Shown here: piece by piece, positions 25,455 to 63,148 of the stretch
Position numbering within the stretch: the stretch's first letter is position 1
How the letters are laid out: the number at the start of each line of letters is the position of its first letter
Assembly: GCA_030390025.1 (NCBI GenBank)
Contig: JASTWF010000323.1
Location: 248,001 to 312,000 of the forward strand
Source: Squalus acanthias
Taxonomy: Eukaryota
Reading direction: 5' to 3'
DNA: 64,000 nucleotides
Made by a program: the position numbers and the translations under genes
Notes under the pieces: generated by a model
The model's input: the letters and a program-made list of their open reading frames with translations, nothing else
The model's database searches: none
Told to the model about the DNA's origin: nothing

Positions 25455-26480
25455 GGCCCCAAAAATTCTTGAGGAAGCCTTTGTGCGAGGGTAAGGCCTC
25501 CCCGCGATCTCTCACTGCGCGTTGGCTTTTTCAGTTCCAGCTCGAACGAACTTGATGTTCTGGACAGCTGCTGTGCTGGGCTTGCGTATCCCACAGGCGT
25601 AGTTAATTCGTGCGAGCTGTGGGATCACGTGACTCAGTTAGAGCCAAAGGCAGCACGCCATCTTCCATTCATAACGTTCACAGAAGTGCTGTGAAAGCTA
25701 TGAATACTTTAGCCCCCCAAAAGAACCGCTAAACCTCGATTAAATTTTTAAAAAAAATCTCATTAATAAAATAAGTATAGTTAAATAAATCAACTATGTT
25801 AAATAAAAAATTAAATATTTGAAAAAATTTAAAATCTTTTAAAAAGTTATAAAAATAAACTTACCTGTCTTTAAAGTCTCTAAAAAAGATATACCTGTTA
25901 AAAAAAATTCAAAATAACACTTAATTCACTACTTACCTTGTTAAAAGTGGGTCTTACTCCTCCTTTTGTTATGTATAGAATCTTCCGTACTTACCTGCGC
26001 GTTGAAACCACTAAGTGCAAAAATGTGCGGGTTAGGTTGATTTGGCTAAGATAAATTGACCCTTAGTGTTAGGGGGGGATTAAATATGTGGGGTTATGGG
26101 GATAGGATGGGATATGTTAGGGGGAATTAAATACGTGGGGTTACGGGGGTAGGGTGGGATATGTGTACTGTGGGGATTAAAGCAGGGACAGGGTACTGGA
26201 TTTGGACGATCAGCCATGATCGTATTGAATGGTGGAGCAGACTCGATGGGCCGAATGGTCCACTCCTGCTCCTAGATTCCATGTTTCTATGTTTCTATGT
26301 GCACTGCGTGCGCGCAGCCTGTAGCGCGCACGCGATTCAACTAGGACCCGCCCCCTTTTCCATTCACCAAGTGCCGGTTTTCAGCGCATGCGCAGTGCAT
26401 GCAGAAAACCGGCAATTGGAGACAGAATACGCGAGAGTACGCAGTGCGTACTCTCGCGCAGCGGCACTAATTTTTGGGCC
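25455..26480 (-). mobile_element. Non-autonomous DNA transposon (Harbinger-like MITE), opposite orientation to copies at 36988-38489
   Basis: TIRs GGCCCCAAAAATT / AATTTTTGGGCC, 3-bp TSD GAT; internal sequence is the reverse complement of 37176-37917. Confidence 0.8.
26020..26299 (+). mobile_element. 5'-truncated HE1-like SINE inserted in the MITE
   Basis: Same body and CR1-type tail as 34994-35390; (TTTCTATG)n end; GTGCA duplicated on both sides. Confidence 0.85.
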
Positions 26481-27464
26481 GATGTATCAACATTGCAGGA
26501 AGCTACTTTAGAAGAAACCATTATTTGTTAATGAGAAAGACACAAAAAATATTTTGATTCATCTGATAATGTTCAATTTCTATTTGGAATAAATGTTTGA
26601 ATTAGGAGATTAAAAATTGAGGGAACAATGAAGTTTGTTTTTAGCTATTTAATTCAAAAATACCCAAAACAATGCAACACTTTTCATGATAAGAGCAGGG
26701 ATTAATATTGTGGCTAATTGTTGAGAGAAAAACATTAGAAGCGAAATTCGTAAATTAACATCTTTACGTAAACATATTAATAATCATTTCCAAGTCAGTC
26801 TGACTGCTTCTCTTGTCCAGGAAAAATGAGGAATGTTACTTCTGTTAAATCATAGCTTTTCCTGCTTTTTGTTTTTAATTTAGTGACGCAAATTATGTAT
26901 GTGTTTTTCTGCACTTGTGAATAAGTGCTGCATTTCTGACATTTTATATGGGGGTGGGGGCGCTGGTTCAAGAAGAGCACGTTTATTAATGGAAGTGATT
27001 GAAGTTCGAAATACGGATACCCGTTTTTGTTCAATTCTTCTTAATGCTTTGAACTAAAGAACTGCAGCACTTGGTTGTCTGGTTGCATTGTGATTAATAT
27101 TCTAATTACATATCTGGATATACAGCACGTCAGCGCAATAGGAAAGTCGCTGCTCCTGCTGCTTTTGCAGCCATTGCTATAATGACATGAGTGATGGGCG
27201 AATAGGTTGAAAACTTTTAAATTAATACAATTTGAATAGATGTTTATTATTTCAGGTTTCCAGCATCCGATATATTTTGCTTTTGCACGAATAGATTTGC
27301 CTCTTCCAGCTCACTTGGGCTTTTGAATTGTTTGCCGATGCATAACCGTGCAATTGTTTGCCGTTTCTGAAGTGTCAATGCATTATTATGCAGTTCTTTT
27401 ATATATCATTCATTTCATATAGAGTTTGTACATGACGAACTAAAAGCTTTTAATTCATTCCACC

Positions 27465-29799: not shown

Positions 29800-31405
29800 T
29801 GGTACCCGTCATGGATCCTAGCTATGCCTGCCTTTTCGTGGGATCTGTGAAAGACTCTTTGTTCCAGTCCCCTCCCTCACCTCTTTTTCCGGTACATTGA
29901 TGACTGTATCGGTGTCGTTTCCTGCCCTCGCCCTGAACTAGATAACTTCATCCACTCTGTTCCAATGTCCAACCTTGTCTCACCTTCACATGGTCCAACT
30001 CCGACTCTACCCTTCCCTTTCCTTCCTCGACTTCTTCGGACCATTTCTGGGGACAGGTTATTGACAAACATTCATTACAAGCCCACTGACTCCAACAGCT
30101 ACCTGGACTAAACTTTCTCCCACCACGACTCATGTAAGGACTCTATTCCATTCCCCCAGTTTCTCCGTCTCCGCCGCATCCACTCTAACGATGCCACCTT
30201 CCATACCAGTGCTTCCTACACGTCTTGCTTTTTCCTCAACCGAGGATTCCCCTCTACAATGGTTGACACGGCCCTCGACCGTGTCCGTTCTGTCTCCTGC
30301 ACTTCTGCCCTCACCCCTGCCCCTCCCTTCCGGAACCACGATAGAGTTCCCCTTGTCCTCATCTTTTACCCCACCAGCCTCCACATTCAACGGTGTATCC
30401 TCCGATAGTTCCACCACCTCCAGCGTGAACCCACCACCAAACGCATCTTCCCCTCACCTCCCCTTTCAGCATTCCGTAGGGACCGCTTCATTCGCGACAC
30501 CCTAGTCCACTCCTCTATCACCCACAGCACCCCTTCCCCTTCTCCCGGCACCTTCCCGTGCAAGCGCTGGAGATGCAACGCATGCCCTTATACCTCACCC
30601 CTTCCCACTTTCCAGGGCCCCAAACACCCCATCCAGGTGAAACGGGGATTTACTTGTACTTCTTGCAATTTAGTTCAATGTATTCGCTGCTCATGATGTG
30701 GTGTTCTCTAGATTAGGGAGACCAAACGCAGATTGGGTGACCGCTTTGCGGAACATCTCTGTTCGGTCCGTAATGGGGACCCCGAGCTTCCGGTCACCTG
30801 TCACTTTAATTCACCGCTCCACTCCCACTCAGAGCTCATAGTCCTCGGCCTCTTGCATTGTTCCACGGAAGCTCAGCGTAAGCTCGAGGAATAGCACCTC
30901 ATCTTTCGATTAGGCACTTTACAGCCTTCTGGACATAACATAGAGTTCAACAATTTCAGATCATAACCTCGGCCCCTATCATATATATATGTTTTATCCA
31001 CACATTTTGTTTTTGCCTTTTATTCTTCTCTCCCACATGGCAGCTGTCTTTCATTCTGCCAGCGCAATACTCACTTCATCCAGTGCTGTCGTTTGTTGCC
31101 TAACCTGTCCCATTACCATCTCATTTTACCTTGAATACCTCTTAATGTCTCTTTTCTTCTCCTGCCTTCTATCCTATCACACAGCTTCCCCTTTGTTCTT
31201 TCATTCCCTCCTCCATTTCCCAGCCCCTAAACTTGCTGAAAAATCTGTTCCATTTACTGCTTTTTTCCAGTTCTGACGAAAGGTCAACGACCTCAAACGT
31301 TAACCCTGTTTCTCTCTTCACTGATGCTGCCTGAACTGCTGAGTACCTCCAGCACTTTCTGTTTTTATTTCAGATTTTCAGCATCTGCAGTACTTTCTTT
31401 TTGTA
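29800..31405 (+). mobile_element. Penelope-like retroelement, 5'-truncated and degraded (RT end + GIY-YIG)
   Basis: SYACLFVG...FFRYIDD...YKPTDSNSYLD, then a C-x-x-C...IRETKRRLGDRFAEHL GIY-YIG-like region; 3' terminus with degenerate hammerhead at 31269-31305. Confidence 0.9.
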
Positions 31406-31503
31406 TTGGAGTTCAGTTGACCATTTGTTTTTCAGACTGGAGGGAAGTATAGATTGTTGTTCCCCACGGGTTATTATTTGGACCAGTGCTCTTTTTGATA
31501 TAT

Positions 31504-31942
31504 GGTGTCGGGAGCGACGAGACCAGAGGTCCAGTAAGTATTTTAACTCACTTTCGCGGGCTTTTCTTTCACAGGCTGGTGTCGGGAGCGACGAGACCGG
31601 AGGTCCAGTGACTATTTGAACTCACTTTCGCGGGCTTTTCTTTCACAGGCTGGTGTCGGGAGCGACGAGACCGGAGGTCCAGTGACTATTTGAACTCACT
31701 TTCGCGGGCTTTTCTTTCACAGGCTGGTGTCGGGAGCGACGAGACCGGAGGTCCAGTTAGTATTTGAACTCACTTTCGCGGGCTTTTCTTTCACAGGCTG
31801 GTGTCGGGAGGGCGAGCCGGAGGCCCAGTGAGTATTTAAACTCACTTTCGCGGGCTTTTCTTTCACAGGCTGGTGTCGGGAGGGCGAGCCGGAGGCCCAG
31901 TGAGTATTTAAACTCACTTTCGCGGGCTTTTCTTTCACAGGC
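31504..31942 (+). repeat. Six tandem 74/72-bp monomers forming the CR1 5' end
   Basis: ggtgtcggg starts at 31504, 31578, 31652, 31726, 31800, 31872. Confidence 0.95.
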
Positions 31943-34900
31943 ATACCAATCTCAGACCAGCGGCGGCGTTCCAGAGCCAGGTCACGATTCAAAACGTGAA
32001 GCGGGCAGGAGGGAGCAGCTGATTGGGTGAGTACGGCTAGATAAGTATTTATACTTCTCTATAGTTTGACAGTTAAGGTTCATAGATTATAAAATTTAGA
32101 AGGTCTTAATTTTGTGTATATAGTTTCTAGTGCTAGTAACCAAGGGCACTTGAGTATATCATTTAATTGAGTGTAATTGGTGGTATTGATTTGATTTAAA
32201 TTAAGTTCAATTAATTAAAGGGTAAGTCAGGACAGGACACCCCAGCCCCGTGTTTTGCTCCCCCTGCTCGATGTGGGAAATCAGGGACCCTTCCGGTGTC
32301 CCTGACAACCATGTGTGCGGGAAGTGTATCCAGCTGCAGCTACTGACAGACCACATTGCGGCGCTGGAGCTGCGGATGGAGGAGTATTGGAGCATTCGCG
32401 ATGCTGAGAACCTCGTGGATAGCACGTTTAGAGTGTTAGTCACACCGCAGGCAAAGGGTGCACAGGCAGGAAGTAAATGCGTGACCACCAGGCAGAGTAA
32501 GAGGTGCAGGCAGGTAGTGCAGGGGTCCCCTGTGGACATCCCTCTCTCAAACAGATATACCACTTTGAATACTGTTGGTGGGGATGACTTATCAGGGGAA
32601 GGCAGCAGCAGCCAACTTCCTGGCACCATGGGTGTCTCTGCTACACGGGCTGGGATGAAAAAGAGTGGAAGATCTATATTGATAGGGGACTCAATTGTAA
32701 GGGGAATAGATAGGCGTTTCTGCGGCCGCAACCGAGAATCCAGAATGGTGTGTTGCCTCCCTGGTGCAAGGGTCAAGGACGTATCGGAGCGGCTACAGAA
32801 CATTTTTGAGGGGGAGGGCGAACAGCCAGCTGGCGTGGTATCATAGGCATCAACGATATAGGTAAAAAAGGGGGTGAGGTGCTAAAAGCATAATATAGAG
32901 AGTTAGGAGGTAAATTACAAAATAGGACCTCAAAGGTAGTTATCTCAGGATTGCTACCAGTGCCACGTGCTAATCAGAGTAGAAATATGAGGATATTTCA
33001 AATGAATACGTGGCTAGAGGAATGGTGTAAGGGGGAGGGATTCAAATTCCTGGGACATTGGAAACGGTTCTGGGGGAGGTGGGACCAGTACAAACCGGAC
33101 GGTCTGCACCTGGGCAGGGCCGGGACCGCTGTTCTAGGGGGATTGTTTGCTAGTGCTGTTGGGGAGGGTTTAAACTAAAGTGGCAGGGGGTGGGGCATCT
33201 GAGCAGGAATACTGAGGAAAGCGTGTCGGGAAGGGACAGAAGGTATGGAATAAAAGGTAAAGTGTTAAAAAAGGAAGAAGCAGGAACTAAGTGTCACAAA
33301 ACATATTTGAAAGTTCTTTATCTAAATGCACGTAGCATTCGTAAAAAAATGGACGAGTTAACGGCACAAATAACTACATATGGGTATGATCTTGTGGCCA
33401 TTACAGAAACATGGCTGCAGGGTGACAACGACTGGGAATTAAATATGCCAGGGTATTTAACAATCAGGAAGGACAGGCAGGAAGGAAGGGGAGGTGGGGT
33501 GGCTATGTTAATAAAGGAAGGAATCACTGTAATACAGAGACATGATATTCTGTCAGAGGATCAGGATAATGAAACAGTTTGGGTTGAGATAAGGAATAAT
33601 AAGGGGAAAAAACACACTAGTGTCCTCCTAATAGTTGCAATTCTGCTGGAAGAAGTATTAAGCAGGAAATAGTTGGGGCATGTAAAAGGAAACAGCTATA
33701 ATTATGGGGGATTTTAACGATCATATTAACTGGACAAATCAAATTGGGCAGGGCAGCCTTGAGGAGGAGTTTATTGAGTGTATTAGGGATGTATTTCTTT
33801 AGCAGTATGTAACGGATCCTACAAGAGGGCAAACAACCTTGAACCTGGTCCTGTGTAATGAGTCAGGATTAATTAATAATGTCCTCATTCAGGATCCTCT
33901 TGGAATGAGTGACCATAACATGGTTGAATTCCATATCCAATTAGAGGGTGAGCAGGTTGGTTCTCAAACAAGCGTACTGAGCTTGAATAAAGGAGACTTT
34001 GATGGTATGAGAGCGGAATTGATTAAAGTGGACTGTGAAAAATAGATTAAACGGTATGACGGTACATGAGCAGTGGTGTTCATTTAAGGAGTTATTTTAC
34101 AACTTTCAAAAAATATATATTCTACTGAGGAAAAAAGGGTGTAAAAGAAATGACAGCCACCCATTGCTAAGTAAAGAAATTAAGGATAGTATCCGACTAA
34201 AAACAAGGACATATAAGGTAGCCAAAATTAGTGGGAGGATAAGAGATTGGGAAGTCTTCAAAAAACAGCAAAAAGTAACGAATGGATTGATTAAGAAAGT
34301 GAAGATAGATTATGAAAATAAATTAGCAAAACATATAAAAACAGATAGCAATTGTTTCTATAGTTATATAAAAAGAAAAAGGGTAGCTAAGGCAAACATA
34401 GGTCCCTTAGAGGATGAGACCGGGAAATTAATGGTGGGAAACATGGAGATGGAAACAAAGCTGAACAAATATTTTGGTCAGTCTTTACGGTAGAGGACAC
34501 TAAGAATATCCCAGCACTGGACAAACAGGGGGCTCTAGGTGGGGAGGAGCTAAATACGATTAAAATCACTAAGAAATTGGTACTTAATAAAATAATGTGA
34601 CTCAAGGCGGATAAATCCCCTGGACCTGATGGCTTACATCCTAGGGTCTTGAGGGAAGTGGCAGTAGGGATTGTGGATGCATTGACAATAATGTTCCAAA
34701 ATTCCCTGGACTCAGCAAAGGTCCCGGCAGATTGGAAAACTGATAATGTAACACCCTTATTTAAAAAGGGTATTAGGCAGAAGGCTGGAAATTATAGACC
34801 AGTTAGCCTAACATCTGTGCTGGGTAAAATTTTGGAGTCTATTATTAAGGAGACATTACGGAATATTTAGATAAACATAATTTAACAGGACAAAGTCATC

Positions 34901-34993: not shown

Positions 34994-35390
34994 TAGAAAC
35001 ATAGAATCTAGGAGCAGGCCATTCGGCCCGTCGAGCCTGCTCCACCATTCAATACGATCATGGCTGATCATCCAAATCCAGTACCCTGTCCCTGCTTTAA
35101 TCCCCACAGTACACATATCCCACCCTACCCCCGTAACCCCACGTATTTAATTCCCCCTAACATATCCCATCTTATCCCCATAACCCCTAACACTAAGGAT
35201 CAATTTATCATAGCCAAATCAACCTAACCCGCACATTTTTGGACTGTGGGAGGAAACCAGAGCACCCGGAGGAAACCCACGCAGACACGGGGAGAATGTG
35301 CAAACTCCACACAGACAGTCACCCGAGGTCAGATTCGAACCCGGTTCCCTGGCGCTGTGAGGCCCCAGTGCTAACCACTATGCCACCGTT
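34994..35390 (-). mobile_element. HE1-like V-SINE inserted in CR1 ORF2
   Basis: tRNA-like head (TGGCATAGTGG A box, GGTTCGAATC B box), V-domain GTGTGGAGTTTGCACATTCTCCCCGTGTCTGCGTGGGTTTCCTCCGGG, CR1-type tail; splits GEPVD / VYLDFQKAFD. Confidence 0.92.
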
Positions 35391-36987
35391 TTACACCTTA
35401 GTGTATTTAGACTTCCAGAAGGCATTCGACAAGTTGCCACATAAAAGATTATTGCTCAAGATAACGCATCACTGGATTGGGGGAAATATTCTGACATGGG
35501 TGGAAGATTGGTTATCTAACAGAAAGCAGAGAGTTGGGATAAATGGTTCATTCTCGGACTGGCAACCAGTAGCCAGTGGTGTTCCGCAGAGGTCGGTGCT
35601 GGGTCCCCAACTCTTTACAATCTATATTAACAATTTGGTGGAGGGGACCGAGTGTAATATATCAAAGTTTGCAGATGATACAAATATGGGAGGGAAAGTA
35701 GAAAGTGAGGAGGACATAAAAAACCTACAAGCGGATATAGACAGGCTGGGTGAGTGGGCGGAGATTTGGCAGATGCAACACAATATTGGAAAATGTGAGG
35801 TTATGCACTTTGGCAGGACAAAACAGAGAGCAAGTCATTATCTTAATGGCGAGAAACTGGAAAGTACTGCAGTACAAAGGGATCTGGGGGTCCTAGTGCA
35901 ATAAAATCAAAAAGTTAGTATGCAGGTGCAGCAGGTGATCAACTAGGCCAACGGAATGTTGGCTTTTATTGCTAGGGGGATAGATTATATAAACAGGGAG
36001 GTATTGCTGCAGTTATATAAGGTATTGGTGAAAACGCACCTGGAATACTGCATACAGTTTTGTGTCCATACTTAAGAAAATACATACTTGCTCTCGAGGC
36101 AGTACAACGAAGGTTCACTCGCTTAATCCCGCAGATGAGGGGGTGGACATATGAGGAGAGGTTGAGTAGATTGGGACTCTACTCATTGGAGTTCAGAAAA
36201 ATGAGAGGTGATCTTATTGAAACTTATAAGATTGTGAAGGGGCTTGATCCGGTGGATGCGGTAAGGATGTTCCCAAGGATGGGTGAAACTAGAATTAGGG
36301 GGCATAATCTTAGAATAAGGGGCTGCTCTTTATAAACTGAGATGAGGAGAAACTTCTTCACTGAGAGGGTAGTAGGTCTGTGGAATTTGCTGCCCCAGGA
36401 AGCTGTGGAAGCCACATCATTAAATATATTTAAAACAGAAATAGACAGTTTCCTAGCAGTAAAGGGAATTAGGGGTTATGGGGAGCGGGCACGAAATTGG
36501 ACATGAGGCTGAGTTCGGATCGGTCAAGACCCTGTGCGTGGCGGAGCGTGCCCAGGGGCTGAGTGGCCGTGTCCTGCTCCTACTTCTTGTGTTCTTTAGA
36601 TTTGAGGTTAGCATCAGATCAGTCATGATCTTATTGAATGGCGGAGCAGGCTCGAGGGGCCGATTGGCCTACTCCTGCTCCTATTTCTTATGTTCTTATG
36701 TTCTTATGAATGACGTAGAGTTGCTTATAAATGGCATCAAAACTCGGAAATGTAGTACACAATGATGTGGATAGTAACAGACTTCAGGAGGACGTAGACT
36801 GACAGATCAACACGAGAGCATAAGAAATATGAGCAGGATTAGGCCATTCGGCCCTCCGATCCCGCTCCACCATTCTATAAGATCATGGCTGATATTCGGT
36901 TAAAAAAAACATTAATATAACACGTTCTAATTGACCCTCATTCCTGCAGATACAGTTTTCTCAATTCTCAGCTTTTTGGCATATATT

Positions 36988-38489
36988 GGCCCGAAAATTA
37001 GACCTAATCCGCGAGAGTACGCACTGTGTACTCTCGCGTTTTAGGTTTCCAATTACCGGTTTCCTGCATGCACTGCGCATGCGCGGGAAACCGGCACTTC
37101 ATGATTTCAAAAGGGGGCGGTTCCTAAGTCAACCGCGTGCGCGCTACAGGCTGCGCGCACGCAGTACACTAAATTGGGCCGAAAATTGATCCCGGGACCC
37201 GAGAGTACGCACTGCGTACTCTCGCGTATTTCCACTCCAATTGCCGGTTTTCTGCATGCCCTGCGCTTGCGCTGAAAACCGGCAATTGCTCTTCCGAAAA
37301 GGGGGCGGGGCCTGGGTGCATCGCGTGCGCGCTACAGGCTGCGCGCACGCTGTGCACTTCATGCTTTGGACGCGCAGGTAAGTTGGGAAGATTTTGGAAA
37401 TGTAAAAAGGAGGAGTAAGACCCGCTTTTAAGAAGGTAAGTAGTGAATTAAGTATTTTTTTGATTTTTTTTTTACAGGTATATCTTTTTTATAGACTTTA
37501 AAGACAGGTAAGTTTATTTTTATAACTTTTTAAAAGATTTTAAATTTTTTCAAAAATTTAATTTTTTATTTAAAATGGTTAATTTAATTAACTATACTTA
37601 TTTTATTAATGTGATGGGTTTTTTTTAATTTAATTGAGGTTTAGCTGTTATTTTGGGGGGTTGTAAGATTCATAAGTCTCACAGCCATGCTGTGAGACTT
37701 ATGAATGGAAGATGGTGTGCTGCCATTGGCTCTAACTGAGTCACGTGATCCCACAGCTCGCACGAATTCACTACGCCGCTGGGATACGCAAGCTCAGCAC
37801 AGCTGATGTCTGGAACATCAAGTTCGTGCGAGCTGGATCAGAAAAAGCATAAGCGAGGTGAGACTACGCGGGGAAGGCTTACCCCCGCGGGAACAGAGCG
37901 AGATCAATTTCTGGGCCGTTATTTTTTCAGCTTTGAACGCGCAGGTAAGTGTTGAAGATTTTACCCATAAAGAAAGCAGGCGTAGGACCCCTTTTAACAA
38001 GGTAAATAGTTAATTAAGTGTTTTTTTTTAATTTTTTGAACAGGTTTATCTTTTTTAGAGACTTTAAAAAGGTAAGTTTATTTTTATAACATTTAAAAAG
38101 ATATAAATTTTTTTCAAAAATTAAAATTTTTGTTTAAAGTGGTTAATTTATTTAACTATACTTATTTTATTAATGTGATGTCTTTTTTAATTAAATTAGG
38201 TTTAGCTGTTCTTTTGGGGGTTTGTAATATTCATAGCTTTGACAGCACTAGCAGTAAAAATAAGAATGAAAGATGGTGTGCTGCCATTGGCTCTAACTGA
38301 ATCACGTGATCCCAGAGCTCGCACGAACTAATTGCGTCTCTGGGTCAGGCAAGCACTGCACAGTTGCATGTGGTAGAGGGCTTGAATCTAAAGTTCGTGT
38401 GGGCCCGGAGGAAAAAGGTAGGTGCGGAGTGAGATATACGCGGGGAAGCCTTACCCCCGCGGGAACGCTCACTTTTTAATTTCTGAGCC
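36988..38489 (+). mobile_element. Harbinger-like MITE containing a nested copy of itself (37176-37917)
   Basis: Outer TIRs GGCCCGAAAATT / AATTTCTGAGCC with TSD ATT; inner TIRs GGGCCGAAAATT / AATTTCTGGGCC flanked by ATT/GTT. Confidence 0.8.
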
Positions 38490-39054: not shown

Positions 39055-39815
39055 AGAATATAAGAAATAAGAGCAGGAGTAGGCCATACGGCCCCTCGAG
39101 CCTGCTCAGACATTCAATAAGATCATTGCTGATCATCGACCTCAACTCCACTTTCCCGCCCGATCTCCATATCCTTTGATTTCCACAGAGTCCAAAAATC
39201 AATCTATCTCAAGCCTGAATATAATCAAAGATTCACCACGCACAGCCCACTGGGGCAGAGAATTCCAAATTTTCCCAACCCTCTGAGTGAAGAAATTCCT
39301 CGTCATCTCAGTCTTTAATGGCCTACTTCTTATCATAGAAACATAGAATCTAGGAGCAGGAGTTGGCCGTTCGAGCCTGCTCTACCATTCAATACGATCA
39401 TGGCTGATCATCCAAGTCCAGTACCCTGTCCCTGCTTTAATCCCCACAGTACACATATCCCACCCTACCCCCGTAACCCCACGTATTTAATTCCCCCTAA
39501 CATATCCCATCCCCCCACATATTTAATCCCCCCCTAACACTAAGGGTCAATTTATCATAGCCAAATCAACCTAACCCGCACATTTTTGGACTGTGGGAGG
39601 AAATATGAGCACCCGGAGGAAACCCACGCAGACACGGGGAGAATGTGCAAACTCCACACCGACAGTCACCCGAGGTCAGATTCGAACCCGGGTCCCTGGC
39701 GCTGTGAGGCACCAGTGCTAACCATTATGCCACCAACCATTATGCCACCGTGTTGTCCTGAGACTATGCCCCCCAGTTCTAGACACTCCAGCCAGGGGAA
39801 ACAACCTCTCAGCAT
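39055..39815 (-). mobile_element. CR1 3' end interrupted by an HE1-like V-SINE (39334-39755)
   Basis: CR1 tail ataagaaataagagcaggagtaggccat; SINE nearly identical to 34994-35390; CR1 resumes at ~39756. Confidence 0.88.
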
Positions 39816-42359: not shown

Positions 42360-43815
42360 AAAGCAAAATACTGAGACTGCTGTAAGTCTGAATGAAAAAA
42401 AGACATTGCTGAAAACACTCAACAGGTCAGGCAGCATCTGTGGAGAGAGAAACAGAGTTAACGTTTCATGTCGATGACCTTTCATCAGAACTGGAAGATA
42501 TCAGCTATTAACAGTAATAAAAAAATGATAGAGTCAGAGAAAAGTGCGGAAGCATAAGGAAGGAACAAAGAGGAATGTCTGTGATCGGCTGGAGGGCAGG
42601 AGTAATTCAATGACTAAAGTGATGATGGTGCAAGGCGAATGGGACAATTAAATAAAGAGAAGATGGGTCCAGAGGCGGTGTAACTGGTTACAGCAGAATA
42701 ACAGAGGGGGAGGTGAAGCATGGCAAATTAGGCAGAGAAAGTTGTGTAGATCCCAAGTGCTTGGACAAGCCCGCCGGCGGTGTACCGGGATCGCCACTCC
42801 AAGCCCCAGCGGACACCTCCTCCATTCCCAGAAGCTCTGGTGGATCCATCCTCTCTTACCAGCATGTCGACCGAGAAAACGGGAGTAGAGGTTATGATCT
42901 GAAATTTTTAAACTAAGTTTTGAGTCCGGTAGGCAATAAAATGCCTATTTGAAAAATACGGTGCAGTTCCTCATTGAAGTTTAAAGGGGGAAAGGGCTGA
43001 AGGCCGAGAATAGAGAGGCCGGAGTGTGAGTTGGATGTAGAATTAAAGTGGCTAGTGAGCTGAAGCTCAGGGTCACACTTGCGGACTGAACGGATGCATT
43101 CAGCAAAGTAATCATTCAATCTATGTTTAGTTCATCCAATGTACAGGAGACTGGATCGTGGGCAGCGAATACAGTAAACTAAATTGTAAGAAGTACAAGT
43201 TAATTACTGTTTCACGTGGATGGAATGTTTGTGGGCCTGGCTGGTGGGATAGAAAGAGGGGAAAGGGCAGCTGTTGCATCTCCTGCGCTTGTATAGGAAG
43301 GTGCCGTATAAGGGGAGCAGATGTTAGATGTGACAGAAGAGTGGACCAGGGTGTTGCGAGGGCCAGGGGCTGGAAGGGCAGAGAAGATATGTTTGACGGT
43401 GGCCTTAGCTGGACGTGGCGGAAATGGCAGAGGATGGCCCGTTGAATGTGAAGGCTGGTGCAGTGGAAGCTGAGGACAAGGTGAACCCTATCTGGGTTCT
43501 GGCACGGAGGGCACGGGGTGACGGCATCAACGCAGGATTGACACGGTCGAGGGCCCTGTCAATCATAATGGAGACGAATACTCGGTGAGGAAATATGTAG
43601 ATATTTCAGTAGCACTGGTGTGGAAGTTGGCATCGTCAGGACATTTGCAACGTTTACGGAGAAACTTTGAGAATAGAATAGAGCCCTTCCCGGAAGTCGG
43701 CTGGGAGGAAGTATAATCAAGAATCCTACGGGAGTTGGTGGGCTTATAGTAGATATTGGTGGACGGCCTAGCCCCTGAAATGGAGATAGAGAAGTCGAGG
43801 AAGGGAAGGTAAGAC
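42360..43815 (-). mobile_element. Degraded Penelope-like element
   Basis: LPFLDFSISIS...YYKPTNS...LDYTSS and FAECIRSVRKCDPEL peptides; hammerhead terminus at 42456-42492. Confidence 0.85.
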
Positions 43816-44237
43816 AACTGTGGTTCACTAATTACATGTTATTCCTGTATTTAAAATGGATGGCCGAACAAGTGCAAGGAACTACTGACCAGTTCCCATA
43901 GTGTTGGTGGCATGAAAGATAATGGAATCCTTACTCAAAGACGTAATAGAAAAACATCTAGAAACACAAAATATAATAAAGAGTAGTCAGCTCGTATTCC
44001 AAAATGACTGGTCATGCTAGACCAAACTTATTGAATTCTTTGAATACGTATCAGAAAGAGCAGATAAGGGTAATGCAGTAGATGTAATATAATTTGATTT
44101 TCTATAGCCCTTCAATAAGTTACCGCAAAGAAGACTGAATCACAGAGCAAGTTGAGTTAATGGAGACGCTGCAGAATGGATAGTGAGCTGGCTAAAAAAA
44201 CAGAAAACAGGGAGCAAGGGATAAAGGTATTTACTCA

Positions 44238-44856
44238 TACGATAGCAAAATACTGCGGATGCTGGAAATCCGAAATAACAACAGAAAACGCTGGAAAAAC
44301 TCAGCAGGCCAGGCAGCATCCGTGGAGAGAGAAAGAGGGTTAACGTTTCAGGTCGATGACCTTTCATCAGAACTGGGAAGAGCCGGAAATCAAATAGTTT
44401 TAAGGGAAGGGTAAAACTGGGAAAAGGGGGAGGGGATAAAGCAACAAAGGGGGAGATGAAGAGACATTAAGAGACATTAAGAGATATGCAAGGCTAGAGG
44501 TGGTGTTAATGTGACAGATTAAGGCTGAATGAAGTGTGAAATCCACTGGCAGAATGAAGGACAGCTGCCAGCTTCTAGGAGGAAAAAAAAGGTGGGGGGG
44601 GGGACAAATAAAAGGGTGGATAAAATACAATATAAATGTGATTGGAGTTGAGGTTATGATCTAAAATTGTTGAACTCGATATTGAGTCCAGAGGGCTGTA
44701 GCGTGCCTAAACGAAAGATGAGGTGCTGTTCCTCGAGCTTACGCTGAGCTTCCGTGGAACAGTGTAATAGGCCGAGGACGGTGAGGTCAGAGTGGGAGTG
44801 AAGCGGTGAATTAAAGTGACAGGCCACCGGGAGCTCGGGGTCCCCCTTACGGACTG
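44238..44856 (-). mobile_element. Young 5'-truncated Penelope-like insertion with 14-bp TSD
   Basis: AAGGTATTTACTCA at 44224-44237 and 44857-44870; near-identical to 63149-63770. Confidence 0.9.
44338..44374 (-). ncRNA. Minimal hammerhead ribozyme (Penelope-associated)
   Basis: Same core as 63247-63283 with one stem I mismatch. Confidence 0.72.
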
Positions 44857-46629
44857 AAGGTATTTACTCAGATTGGCAGATGGTGAGAAGTGGTGTTCCA
44901 CAAGTATCGGCGCTGGGAACACTGTTCAACATTTACATAAACGATATTGACTCGGGACGCAGAAGCACAAATTCCAAATTTTCAGACAGATCCAAATTGG
45001 GAATAGAGTTAATACAGAGGAAGAATGCAACACAATACATGAAGACATTAATAAACTTGCAGAATGGGTGTATAAATGGCAAATTAATTTAAATATAGCT
45101 GAATTTGAGCTGTTGCATTTTGGTTGGAAGAATAAGGTTCCCAAATACCCCTTTTAAATAAGAGTCAGAATGAGGTAGAGGGTCATAGGGTTTCAGTGGT
45201 ACAGATTCACAAATCATTTAAAGTACCAACGCAGGTTAACAATGCCATGCAATGGAAACAAAGCACTGGGGTTCATTTCAAGCTGAATAGAATCGAAAAG
45301 TAAAGGGGTTATCATAAAACTATATAGAACCTTGGTTATACCACACTTAGTGTACTATGCACAGTTCTGGTCTCCATATTACACAAAGGATATCAAGGCA
45401 CAGGAGAAGGTGCAATTTGTTTACAAGGCTGATACCAGAACTGAGAAATTATAACCATCAGGAAAGATTATACAGGCTGGGGCTCTTTTCTTTGCAAAAA
45501 GAAGTTTGAGTGGCGGCCTAATAGAGAGGCCTTTAAATTATGAAGGATTAACATAGAGTAGATGTTTGCACTTGTGAGGTGAGTCAAAAACTGGAGATTA
45601 TCGATATAAGATAGTCACTAATAAATCCATTAAGGAATTCAGGAGAACTTACTTACTCAGAGAGTGGTTAGAAAGTGGGACTCGCTACAACTTGGAGTAC
45701 TTGAGGCGTATAGCAGAGATGCCTTTAAGGGGAAGCTAGATAAGTACACGAGGTAGAAAGCTGTAGAAGTTTATGCTGATAGGGTTAGATGAAGAGGGGT
45801 GAGAGGAGGCTCCTGTGGAGCATACAAACTGTCATAAACTAGTAGGGCCGATTGGCCTGTTTTGTGATGTAGATTCTATGGAGTTCTCCATAACTTGAGT
45901 ACAAATTAATCACAGTCATCAGTTTTTTCATAACATTGTGGATATTGAAGTGCCTTTTTTATTGAAGCATTGCAGTATTTATTCATTAATCAGAGATTAA
46001 TAATGTTATTATTTTCAGCCTCCGGACTGATCACCGTATTATGAAAACCTGATATACATGTTCTTCAGTTATACGTGTCTCTCCTCGCAGGGACACAACT
46101 CACTGAGCTAAGGACAGAGATCGATGCAGGTTACCTGTGTAGAGAACCTGAATCATAGTTAAGAAATTGTTCATCAAACCATAATCAGTAACAGAAGTTT
46201 ACTAATCAATAACCACAGTCCAATATTCATCGTGTCTAATAACAAGATAATAAAATTCAGCATTCATGACTCACAGATTTTCATGCCCGTGTTAGGGGAA
46301 GTGGATTCATCGACATCAAAACAGCTAAAGTGTTTACAGTACCTATACTTAGAATAAGAATAAGTCATTATACAGAGGATTTAAATAATGTAACACTGCT
46401 GTCCTGCTGTTTACATGTCACTAAATCATTAACATCTGTTTCAGTTGGTGTAGTTCTGTAGGAAACAGAGCAGTATCCATGCATTTCACTTTATACATGT
46501 ATAACCAAACATGTTCAACCAACAGCATAAATATTCCCGTACGCCATCGATTACATTCGTAAAACATGAATGCCGCTCCATGGAGGGTAGAGATCAGTCA
46601 TCTAAAACAATGATTTCAACGTAGAACCA

Positions 46630-56901: not shown

Positions 56902-57777
56902 TCATCCTTTAATTAATTTTACAATTGAAGTAAAGGGATATTTCACAATATTTATCACCTGCTGTCTAAACCTAGTCTGTTTCACGGCATAAATGCAAGT
57001 GTTTGTGCAGCAACTCAGGAGCTGGAGCATTTGTCCCAAATCTGGTAAATATATAGGTAGAGATACAAAATAATCAACCAATCGCCACACCCGGTTATAT
57101 ATAGAATATGCAATAAGCACTGACCATAACAGTATGAAATTGCACGAAATAGCAAAAAGTAAAATTATGGATTGTCTTCGGCTTTCCAGCTCTGGGTCTC
57201 TGGGACCCTCCCCACTGCTGGGAGCCCGGAGCCTCCTGCGGGATCTGCTGGCCACTAAAATGTGTCTGACGGTGACAGCATTTAGTAGCAAAATCAGTCA
57301 ATATGTTGAAGGAACTCGATTGTTCCCCAGACCAGTGGAAGCTGAACTTCGATTGTTCCATAACCAAACCAGGGGAGCTTCACTGCCCAATATTTATCAG
57401 TCAACATAAAGTAATAGAAAAGGTTCTTTAAACAACTCAGCACAGTCACTGATCCTAGAACCGCAGCTGCCGTTTTCTTGGTGCAATATTTTGTTTTCAG
57501 CTTCTGGCAAAAAATTGCCACAAAACGATCAAAGGTGAAAGTGACAGTGAACCAGACAGAACAGTCTGTGACGGCATAAAGCAGGACGGCGTGGATATTA
57601 CACACGGGGATAGCATACACAGGAACAAACGGTTTCTTATAAGTCATCGGAATGTGCCTCAATATCAGATCGATGATAACGACCAGTAGATCCGTCGCTG
57701 CCATGGCCACTAGCGATTGACACATGTGGAGAGACCGCACTTTCCCCGAGACAGGATCACAATGGTCACTATGTTAA
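56902..57777 (-). pseudogene. GPR139-like GPCR paralogue, exon 2, frameshifted
   Basis: Acceptor ctctgcacag|TT AAC ATA GTG (NIVTIVILSRGKCGLSTCV), shift near 57715, then VAMAATDLL...FTFDRFVAI..., deletion/shift near 57295, then LLNAVTVRHIL...SCCTNTCIY. Confidence 0.88.
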
Positions 57778-61030: not shown

Positions 61031-63148
61031 CGATTGGTGAAAAGTCTCCTACACCAAGAAAACATTCTTCTGATTAGTTACAAATGTTCAGTGTGGTTAG
61101 CAGACGGAAATTCGTTAAATAAAGTGTTTGGGTGCAATATCTTTGTTTGAAATGAACATAGAATATTGCAACACCAAAAGAAAATACTGCAGTTGCTTGA
61201 AATCTGAAACAAAAACAAAAAATGCTGGAGAAACTCAGCACGTCAGGCAGCATCTGTAAAGAGAGAAACAGAATTAACGTTTCAGGTCGATGACCTTTCG
61301 TTAGTACTGGAAAAAAGCAGGAAATGGAACAGATTTTTAAGCAAGTGCAGAGGCTGGGAAAGGGGGGAGGGGATGAAAGAACAAAAGGTAAGGTCTGTGA
61401 TAGGATAGAAGTGTTTAAGAGACATTAAGAGATATTCAAGGCAAAAGGAGATGGTAATGGGACAGATTAAAAACAAAGGATGGCTCGAGATGAAGTGTAA
61501 ATTGCGCTGGCAGAATGAAAGACAGCTGCCATGTGGGGGAGAAGAAAAAAAGACAGACAAAGAGTGTGATCAATAAAATATATATCTGTGGTCGGGGCCG
61601 AGGTTATGATCTGAAATTGTTAAACTCTATGTTGAGTCCAGAACGCTGTAGAGTGCCTAACCGAAAGATGAGGTGCTGTTCCTCGAGCTTACGCTGAGCT
61701 TCCGTGGAACAATACAAGAGGCCGAGGACGGTGATGTCTGAGTGGGAGTAGAGCGGTGAATTAAAGAGACAGGCGACCGGAAGCTCGGGGCTCCCTAACG
61801 GACTGAACGGAGGTGTTCCGCAAAACGGTCAGACAATCTGCGTTTGGTCTCCCCAATGTAGAGGAGACCACATCGTGAGCAGCGAATACAGTATACTAAA
61901 TTGCAAGAAGTACAAGTAAATCTCTGTTTCACCTGAAAGGGGTGTTTGGCGCCCTGGACAGTGGGAAGCGGGGAGGTATAAGGGCTTGTGTTGCATCTCC
62001 TGCGCTTGCACGGGAAGGTGCCGGGCTTAGGGGAAGGGGTGTTGGAGGTGATAGAGGAGTGCACTACTGTGGCGCAGAGGGAGCGATCCCTACGGAATGC
62101 TGAAAGGGGAGGCGAGGGGAAGATGAGTTTCATGGTGGGATCACGCTGGAGGTGGCGGACATGGCGATGGATGATTCGTTGAATGTGGAGTCTGGTCGGG
62201 TGAAAGGTGAGGACAAGGGGAACTCTGTCGTGCTTCCGGGAAGCAGGGGCAGTGGTGAGGGCAGAAGTGCGGGAGATAGATCGGACATGGTCAATGGCCG
62301 TATCAGCCACTGTAGAGAGAATTCCGCGGTTGAGGAAAAAGGAAGACATGTCAGAAGCACTGATATGGAAGGTAGTTGCGTCAGAGTAGATGCGGCGGAG
62401 ACGGAGAAACTGTTAGAATGGAATAGAGTCCTTACAGGAGGCGGGGTGGGAGGGAGTGTAGTTCAGGTAGCTGTGGGAGTCAGTGGGCTTGCAGTGAATG
62501 TCTGTCAATAACCTATCCCCAGAGATGGAGATGGAGAGGTCGAGGAACGGAAGGGAAGAGTCGGAGATGGACCATGTGAAGGTGAGGGAATGGTGGAAAT
62601 TGGAAGCAAAATGAATGAAATTATCTAGTTCAGGGCGAGAGCAGGAAACGGCACGGATAAAGTCATCAATGTACCGGAAAAAGACGTGAGGGAGGGGACA
62701 GGAGTAGGACTGGAACAAAGAGTGTTCCCCATGTCTCACGAAAAGGCAGTCATAGCTAGGACGCATGCGGGTTCCCATAGCAACACTTTTGATTTGGAGG
62801 AAGTGAGTGGATTCAAAGGAGAAGTTGTTCAATGTGAGAACATGTTCAGCCAGGTGGAGGAGGGTGCTGCTGCATGGGGACTGGTTGGGCCTCTGTTCAA
62901 GGAAGAACCGGAACGCCCTCAGGCCATCCTGGTGTGGGATGGAGAATTAGAGGAATTGTACGTCAAGAGTGAAAAGCAGGAGGATTGGGCTAGGAAATTG
63001 GAAAATGTTAAAGTGGCGGAGGGAGTCGGAAGAATCACGGATGTAAGTGGGAAGAGACTGGACAAGGGGAGAAAAAATAGAGTCGCGATAAACAAGAGTT
63101 AAGTTCCGTGTGGCAAGAACAGTCTGAAACGATGGGTCTTATAGGTCA

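Follow-up and report, generated by a model that had tools for sequence, protein, structure and literature searches.

The 5' end of a full-length but decayed chondrichthyan CR1 retroelement is built from six tandem units of 72–74 bp, and these units are probably an unspliced promoter array, with or without a role for U1. The element lies in the window, by which we mean the whole 64,000-nucleotide stretch of Squalus acanthias DNA analyzed here. By analogy with mouse L1, the array is best read as a monomer promoter that would be renewed by tandem duplication. That its splice-donor-like motifs would also recruit U1, to the benefit of the element, is the explanation we favor, at slightly below an even chance. 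A first-pass annotation, made from the letters alone, had described each unit as a miniature exon-intron cassette.

The element interrupts an older CR1 reverse transcriptase (RT) fragment, both parts of which match protein P0051 (the right-hand match scores 44, against a maximum of 34 among 60 shuffles). As the flanks rejoin into one fragment, the element inserted there, with its 5' end at 31504, where the CpG-rich half of unit 1 lacks its first 3 nt. Chordate CR1 LINEs end in a tail of short tandem repeats, with no poly(A) and no long target duplication; here, the tail is (TTCTTATG)x3 and the flanks rejoin in frame. ORF1 is 63–69% identical to full-length homologs bearing PF13472, the best named ones being from sharks, rays and chimaera, and the fragment in the window itself matches PF13472 with an E-value of 1e-4, which falls short of the curated cut-off. 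ORF2 comprises PF03372 (APE) and PF00078 (RT), is 75% identical to P0051 over the RT query and has its best named matches among shark, ray, chimaera, turtle and bird RTs. This copy is dead: ORF1 has lost its start codon, a SINE-like insert is present, and of the 7 frameshifts and 6 stops, one each falls in ORF1. The parts of the element outside the array, and its flanks, are as follows.

31429–31503 (+): left flank, older CR1 RT fragment (insertion target), ending ...FLIY; P0051 residues 641–665, 48% identity, E 1e-5
31941–32040 (+): single-copy GC/CpG-rich leader with CCAAT boxes at 31946 (+) and 32022–32026 (-)
32027 (+): donor TGG/GTGAGTAC in the GC/CpG-rich leader
32038–32055 (+): seventh copy of the core motif GTRAGTATTTDWACT, overlapping TATTTATA (32046)
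32056–32228 (+): AT-rich leader, no sense ATG; donor AGG/GTAAGTCA at 32222, 7 nt upstream of the ORF1 start
32229–33178 (+): ORF1, CxxC zinc-finger region and SGNH/GDSL esterase; broken, ending TTTAAAC-TAA
33170–36503 (+): ORF2, APE endonuclease and RT; broken by 5 stops and 6 frameshifts
about 34994–35387: SINE-like insert splitting the ORF2 RT
36504–36708 (+): 3' UTR, a unit of about 100 bp duplicated, then the octamer tail
36706–36800 (+): right flank, older CR1 RT fragment continued (MND..., then P0051 residues 684–704)

Several observations concern the element's surroundings. A paralog of the SINE-like insert, 93% identical, lies 4 kb off at 39336–39734. The 3' UTR unit is doubled at 36515–36708, with a spacing of about 100 bp, ahead of the octamer tail, and TTTAAAC-TAA marks the ORF1/ORF2 boundary at 33169–33178. 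Proteins P0034 and P0035, isoform models of ray TMEM204, start with CR1 ORF1 esterase sequence, which suggests CR1-host chimeric transcripts or chimeric gene models. The window further holds a single-exon rhodopsin-family GPCR ORF (PF00001; 40692–41642, -) with a broken paralog-like stretch at 56902–57773 (-), several copies of Penelope-like fragments with a GIY-YIG match (30009–31408, 61169–62946 and 42888–44858) and other tandem arrays with periods of 53, 92, 29, 84, 18 and 38 bp.

The array occupies 31504–31940 and consists of six head-to-tail units of 74, 74, 74, 74, 72 and 72 bp (TRF: period 74, 6.0 copies, 96% matches). Each unit is composed of a CpG-rich half of 33 or 31 nt and a 41-nt half that starts with GT and ends with TTTCACAG.

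31504–31574 (+): monomer 1 (type A), 5'-clipped by 3 nt; element 5' end
31534–31574 (+): intron-like half of monomer 1, donor CCA/GTAAGTAT, 9/11 U1 match
31575–31648 (+): monomer 2 (type A, 74 bp), weakened donor GTGACT; identical to monomer 3
31649–31722 (+): monomer 3 (type A, 74 bp)
31723–31796 (+): monomer 4 (type A, 74 bp), weakened donor GTTAGT
31797–31868 (+): monomer 5 (type B, 72 bp), CpG-rich half of 31 nt
31828–31845 (+): donor/hairpin GTGAGT-ATTTAA-ACTCAC of monomer 5
31833 and 31846 (+): TATA-like TATTTAAA and E2F-like TTTCGCGG of monomer 5
31865 (+): A of the Inr-like TTCACA of monomer 5, overlapping the acceptor-like CAG
31869–31940 (+): monomer 6 (type B, 72 bp), identical to monomer 5

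Units 2 and 3 agree letter for letter, as do units 5 and 6, and no two units differ by more than 5 substitutions and a 2-nt indel. The 30-nt stretch from AACTCAC to CAG is invariant in all six units. The type A/B difference aside, the array has six private changes, five of which are found at +3, +5 and +11 of the 41-nt half, within the donor/TATA stretch, where they break the hairpin without compensation. The six units were counted as one independent observation. TRF, unit alignment and element reconstruction together bear out the earlier description of six 74/72-bp monomers as a CR1 5' end, with a pseudo-intron of about 41 nt and a CpG-rich segment of 31–33 nt (41 nt and 33/31 nt by our measurement). 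The donors listed there for units 1 to 6 (GTAAGT, GTGACT, GTGACT, GTTAGT, GTGAGT and GTGAGT) are in place, AACTCAC is followed in every unit by a pyrimidine tract and a TTTCACAG/G acceptor, and the additional donor GG/GTGAGT announced at about 32026 lies at 32027. Two donors absent from that description were identified at 32041 and 32222.

Other copies of the element were sought by comparing positions 31828–33000 (one full unit plus one intron-like half) with the contigs of four of 24 sequencing runs. Run X1 is DNA from organism A, whereas X16 and X17 (organism A) and X15 (organism F) are only presumed to be RNA; in all cases contigs were used. Monomer bins are covered in all four runs. An X1 contig, 85% alike, bridges 31898–32035, showing the intron-like half continuous with the leader in another copy, and both organisms have runs with insertions that convert type B to type A. 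The monomer is thus shared by other copies of the family. Of the 40 differences listed (out of 336), those fixed at 90% or more in X1 number 26 downstream of the array, or at least 2.5% of 1,057 bases, and none within 31828–31941. The depth of X16 and X17 is lower over 32041–32136, although contig depth cannot rank parts of the element. One contig each of X16 and X17 joins about 120 foreign letters exactly at 32136 (TGCTAG/TAACC), possibly an acceptor, a truncated copy or an alternative leader. Searches with the monomer pattern returned 0 matches in metagenome contigs and 0 in viral contigs; two bacterial matches in genome contigs were taken as chance. An ORF1 scan yielded 0 loci in viral contigs, 0 in genome contigs and 28 in metagenomes, the latter distant, bird-like where readable and with a readable leader in 2.

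The array has the composition of a CpG island, with a CpG observed/expected ratio of 1.02 and a GC content of 0.55, against CpG ratios of 0.36–0.51 in the ORFs. In units 5 and 6, TATTTAAA starts 32 nt upstream of the A in TTCACA, the 'acceptor'. A TATA-like box and an initiator (Inr) at that spacing arise in 1 of 20,000 shuffles, for a pattern that was relaxed to admit the non-canonical T and set after viewing the unit. The non-canonical TATTTAAA is confined to units 5 and 6, its place being taken by TATTTTAA in unit 1 and TATTTGAA in units 2–4. The E2F-like TTTCGCGG sits between the TATA-like box and the Inr in all six units, and in 979 of 20,000 shuffles too. Two CCAAT boxes follow downstream of the array, and an E-box scan of the element found none. 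A CDE/CHR reading was rejected, as the spacing departs from the consensus spacing and a CHR-like word occurs in 843 of 20,000 shuffles.

The copy's 5' end lies 7 nt past the predicted initiator, a single case with a chance of about 1 in 10. Mouse L1 monomers have start sites that are marked by truncation sites shared among copies, and their promoter is maintained by duplication (PMC6454616, accessible part). In a body that is 2–3.5% diverged, the identity of units 2 and 3 and of units 5 and 6 has a probability of at most 0.003 for both pairs, and the identical pairs therefore point to recent unit duplication, be it local or in the source element. The earlier idea of a self-renewing tandem promoter gains support from the position of the array at the 5' terminus, its CpG-island composition, the monomer joined to the UTR elsewhere and the in-register duplications, and has precedents, by analogy, in mouse L1 and CR1-group LINEs. 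In our picture, a CR1 family of chondrichthyans would use the array as an internal Pol II promoter of tandem monomers, which would be kept unspliced in the retrotransposing RNA. A compact core promoter would reside in the 'intron' half, comprising the TATA-like box at -32, the E2F-like site and a pyrimidine-rich initiator that resembles a 3' splice site. With a start near the unit boundary, upstream units would be lost in each copy and in-register duplication would regrow the array, as in mouse L1.

The donors extend beyond the units. The core motif GTRAGTATTTDWACT has 7 matches in 64 kb (0.10 expected), one per unit and one at 32041. This copy differs from the family majority (99–100% of X1 depth) at 32038 and 32041; in family-majority letters, 32038–32048 is a perfect 11/11 complement of the U1 5' end (2 of 10,000 shuffles), and the two private changes break this donor here. 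Family-majority letters also contain three GTRAGT in 291 nt (43 of 10,000 shuffles), while donor enrichment is weak in the decayed copy alone (319 of 10,000). The perfect match at 32041 makes the donors look selected, and a loose contig end suggests a GTGAG variant in organism F. The sense strand carries 12 AATAAA/ATTAAA hexamers. According to the accessible part of PMC12211998, a strong 5' splice site close to the start blocks Restrictor even when it is not used for splicing. From the donor statistics, the poly(A)-like hexamers and this precedent, we infer U1 recruitment without splicing. A 5'-splice-site motif about 35 nt past each start, with three further ones upstream of ORF1, would most likely bind U1 snRNP and thereby shield the early elongation of an intron-less transcript that bears poly(A) signals; the 16-nt spacing from donor to branch point and the donor hairpin would prevent cutting of the unit. 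Three of the six units have a weakened donor, the hairpin would hinder U1 as well as splicing, and the reading draws on one fully read locus; all three count against it. A HUSH-decoy idea was dropped, since splice-signal-flanked stuffers gave no protection from HUSH in the accessible part of PMC8770142.

A less likely alternative is that the array is an unspliced promoter whose splice likeness is incidental: the 'donor' would be the flank of a TATA-like word or of a factor-binding palindrome, the 'acceptor' an initiator, and U1 would play no part. By chance, the promoter reading would come up no more often than the splice reading (1 versus 47–217 of 20,000 shuffles), the 15-nt motif shared by the units reaches 7 nt past the U1-pairing region, and the weakened donors fit as well. 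The same holds for human L1, where a donor lies inside a RUNX3 site; its mutation brings RNA down to about 18%, which is ascribed to the overlapping RUNX3 site and not to U1, and the donor may be hidden by RNA structure (PMC5860796, accessible part). However, three exon-side letters of the 11-nt U1 match fall outside the TATA-like word, which the donors at 32027 and 32222 lack altogether.

It is unlikely that the family carries one or a few units and that the six-copy array is a minisatellite-like local expansion without function. That the two unit pairs are identical letter for letter, although the copy differs privately at 2.5% of positions or more and carries 6 stops and 7 frameshifts, speaks for such an expansion. 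Against it, both unit types occur elsewhere, and the summed X1 contig depth is 11,700 at 31882 against 507 at 31888. Although depth is no copy number, we read this pattern as abundant records across unit-to-unit junctions, which could include free satellites.

The splice look of the unit exceeds chance modestly. A strict cassette test (GTRAG, 30–60 nt, at least 11/13 pyrimidines, YAG) did not pick up the monomer. When relaxed to 10/13 pyrimidines, 3 of 6 units pass, next to 14 other rows on the two strands of the window and 23 rows in 186 kb of other loci; 217 of 20,000 shuffled units pass, or 47 with a branch-like motif. GT and AG are present in all units and a GTRAG donor is kept in only three. 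Moreover, donor and 'branch point' are not independent signals, since GTGAGT reads ACTCAC on the opposite strand. They form a hairpin with a predicted pairing probability of 0.99 in units 5 and 6; a donor with a perfect hairpin occurs in 2 of 20,000 shuffles, for a pattern defined after viewing the unit. Folding of the whole unit is unremarkable (z +0.4 to -2.6), the hairpin has no covariation support, and Rfam covariance models gave 0 matches in 31300–32300 at E up to 1.

The 41-nt segment is unlikely to work as an intron. Its branch-like A sits at +17, and both the 16-nt donor-to-branch spacing and the length are shorter than the vertebrate spliceosome takes. Human introns of 65 nt or less are rare, and examples of 43–56 nt are spliced (PMC4463651, accessible part). 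The leader of 725 nt (31504–32228) holds no sense ATG, with a chance in shuffles of P=0.004 for 31869–32228 and of 0.015 for the AT-rich stretch after the donors. An ATG-free leader is expected if ribosomes scan it whole and unspliced, which argues against an intron, as do the spacing, the hairpin and the unspliced junctions in other copies. Contigs of the three presumed-RNA runs cross 31942–31943, and with it the last acceptor, unspliced, with about 30 letters left to the contig ends. Of five joints listed, 0 are GT-AG and 0 have the 41-nt segment removed, in contigs that show presence, not absence; the 48 indel rows beyond those listed may include a 41-nt gap. Low-level or rare splicing of the units may still occur.

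Quite unlikely, too, is skip splicing, in which donor n would be joined to acceptor n+1 or to the last acceptor and the alternative leaders would regulate expression. The unit does have a real donor, a pyrimidine tract and CAG/G, about 89 nt separate donor n from branch n+1, 31941–32040 resembles a 100-nt exon, and the short human introns above can be spliced. The invariant 30-nt block could be read as a conserved splice signal, but equally as a promoter core. Exons of 31–33 nt are smaller than exon definition usually requires. Since a LINE propagates through its own RNA, new copies would have lost the segments, and with them the invariant block, if splicing were efficient; DNA and presumed-RNA contigs nevertheless show the unspliced form. 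In human L1, intra-5'UTR splicing leads to promoter-poor, dead-end copies (PMC5860796). The suggestion that the monomers splice in skip combinations thus finds no support, as the intron-like half is found in abundance and continues unspliced into downstream sequence.

A battery of acceptors that captures host transcription to express ORF1 and ORF2, also suggested earlier, is very improbable: six tandem CAG/G acceptors at the 5' end and the foreign joint at an AG at 32136 (outside the array, and equally a truncated copy or other leader) would fit it, but three donors (32027, 32041 and 32222) between the last acceptor and the ORF1 start mean that a captured transcript would be spliced out again and ORF1 not expressed, and a terminal CpG-island array has the look of an autonomous promoter.

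Within the unspliced promoter array with U1-recruiting donors, a tentative and rather doubtful extension is that the units act as unspliceable pseudo-introns. A U1 donor after each start would let the transcript pass as a spliced mRNA at early-termination checks, while spacing and donor hairpin would preserve the RNA for retrotransposition. Two further sequences may hint that this design recurs in vertebrate mobile elements, namely a MITE-like repeat and the leader L005.

The MITE-like repeat, unrelated to the CR1 unit, has short terminal inverted repeats and is located at 36988–37915 (+), about 37918–38480 (+, partial) and 25485–26487 (-). It comprises a 188-bp CpG/GC-rich duplicated unit followed by three strong donors and a 42-nt cassette GTAAGT...T-run...ACAG/G at 37436–37477. 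Of the 19 sites in the window that match U1 at 9/11 or better, 8 belong to this repeat. In the bird-like CR1 leader L005, positions 80–115 form a 36-nt cassette of GTGAGT, pyrimidine tract and CAG/G shortly upstream of ORF1. Such a cassette arises in about 2% by chance and is missing from the bird-like leader L011, the other of the two leaders compared. The CpG-rich leader L011 (1–270) starts at a contig edge and contains a 55-nt stretch, with TCTCGCGAGA and CACGTG words, that is repeated without change at a spacing of 215 nt; the repeat may be an assembly effect.

CR1-group LINEs make up 22–34% of elasmobranch genomes (bioRxiv 10.64898/2026.01.13.699120, accessible part), and the start of their transcription is barely described. 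A 72-bp unit in which core-promoter and U1 motifs overlap is small enough for dissection. It would test splice donors as anti-termination signals in intron-less retroelements, which bears on the human L1 donor, and strong donors predict CR1-host chimeric transcripts. If the motifs are incidental, the array would be one more monomer-array LINE promoter.

Repeats at the 5' end are known from CR1-group LINEs; for the donor-rich anatomy of the unit we found no description. Our literature search, thin in its coverage of subscription papers and Repbase-type entries, found none of donor/acceptor-bearing CR1 monomers; splice sites have reportedly been described in zebrafish L2. Turtle and pufferfish CR1-type elements have 32-bp direct repeats near the 5' UTR (cited in PMC2734521, accessible part), and some CR1-group elements lacking ORF1 have arrays of 1–5 subunits of 100–500 bp (bioRxiv 10.64898/2026.01.13.699120). 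The accessible part of the latter contains 'splic' 0 times and mentions no splice-like motifs for these repeats. Those repeats and the present array are alike in being tandem or direct repeats near the 5' UTR within the same LINE group, whereas the present element has ORF1 and six shorter units. Motifs of 70–100 bp are also repeated in tandem in other mammalian L1 leaders (PMC5381506), and PMC3747384 and PMC10901741 served, in their accessible parts, as context.

The human L1 5'UTR, with its SpIREs, shares with the array a conserved, rarely used donor near the start that overlaps promoter sequence, but its sites are single and joined over hundreds of bases, where the array repeats a 41-nt pair (PMC5860796). 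Promoter-proximal U1 donors that counter Restrictor and premature polyadenylation resemble the proposed mechanism in that a strong early donor acts without splicing; they are known from mammalian genes and reporters, not from LINEs or sharks (PMC12211998, accessible part). Mouse L1Md differs in clade and in its units of about 200 bp (PMC6454616, PMC5381506), while the CR1 units measure 72–74 bp, each with donor- and acceptor-like motifs, and their promoter activity is what we infer. L1Md types A, Tf and Gf nevertheless share with the array terminal tandem CpG-rich units of variable number with small-indel subtypes, and there, too, duplication offsets truncation and 5' ends mark a start site within the unit (PMC6454616, PMC5381506).
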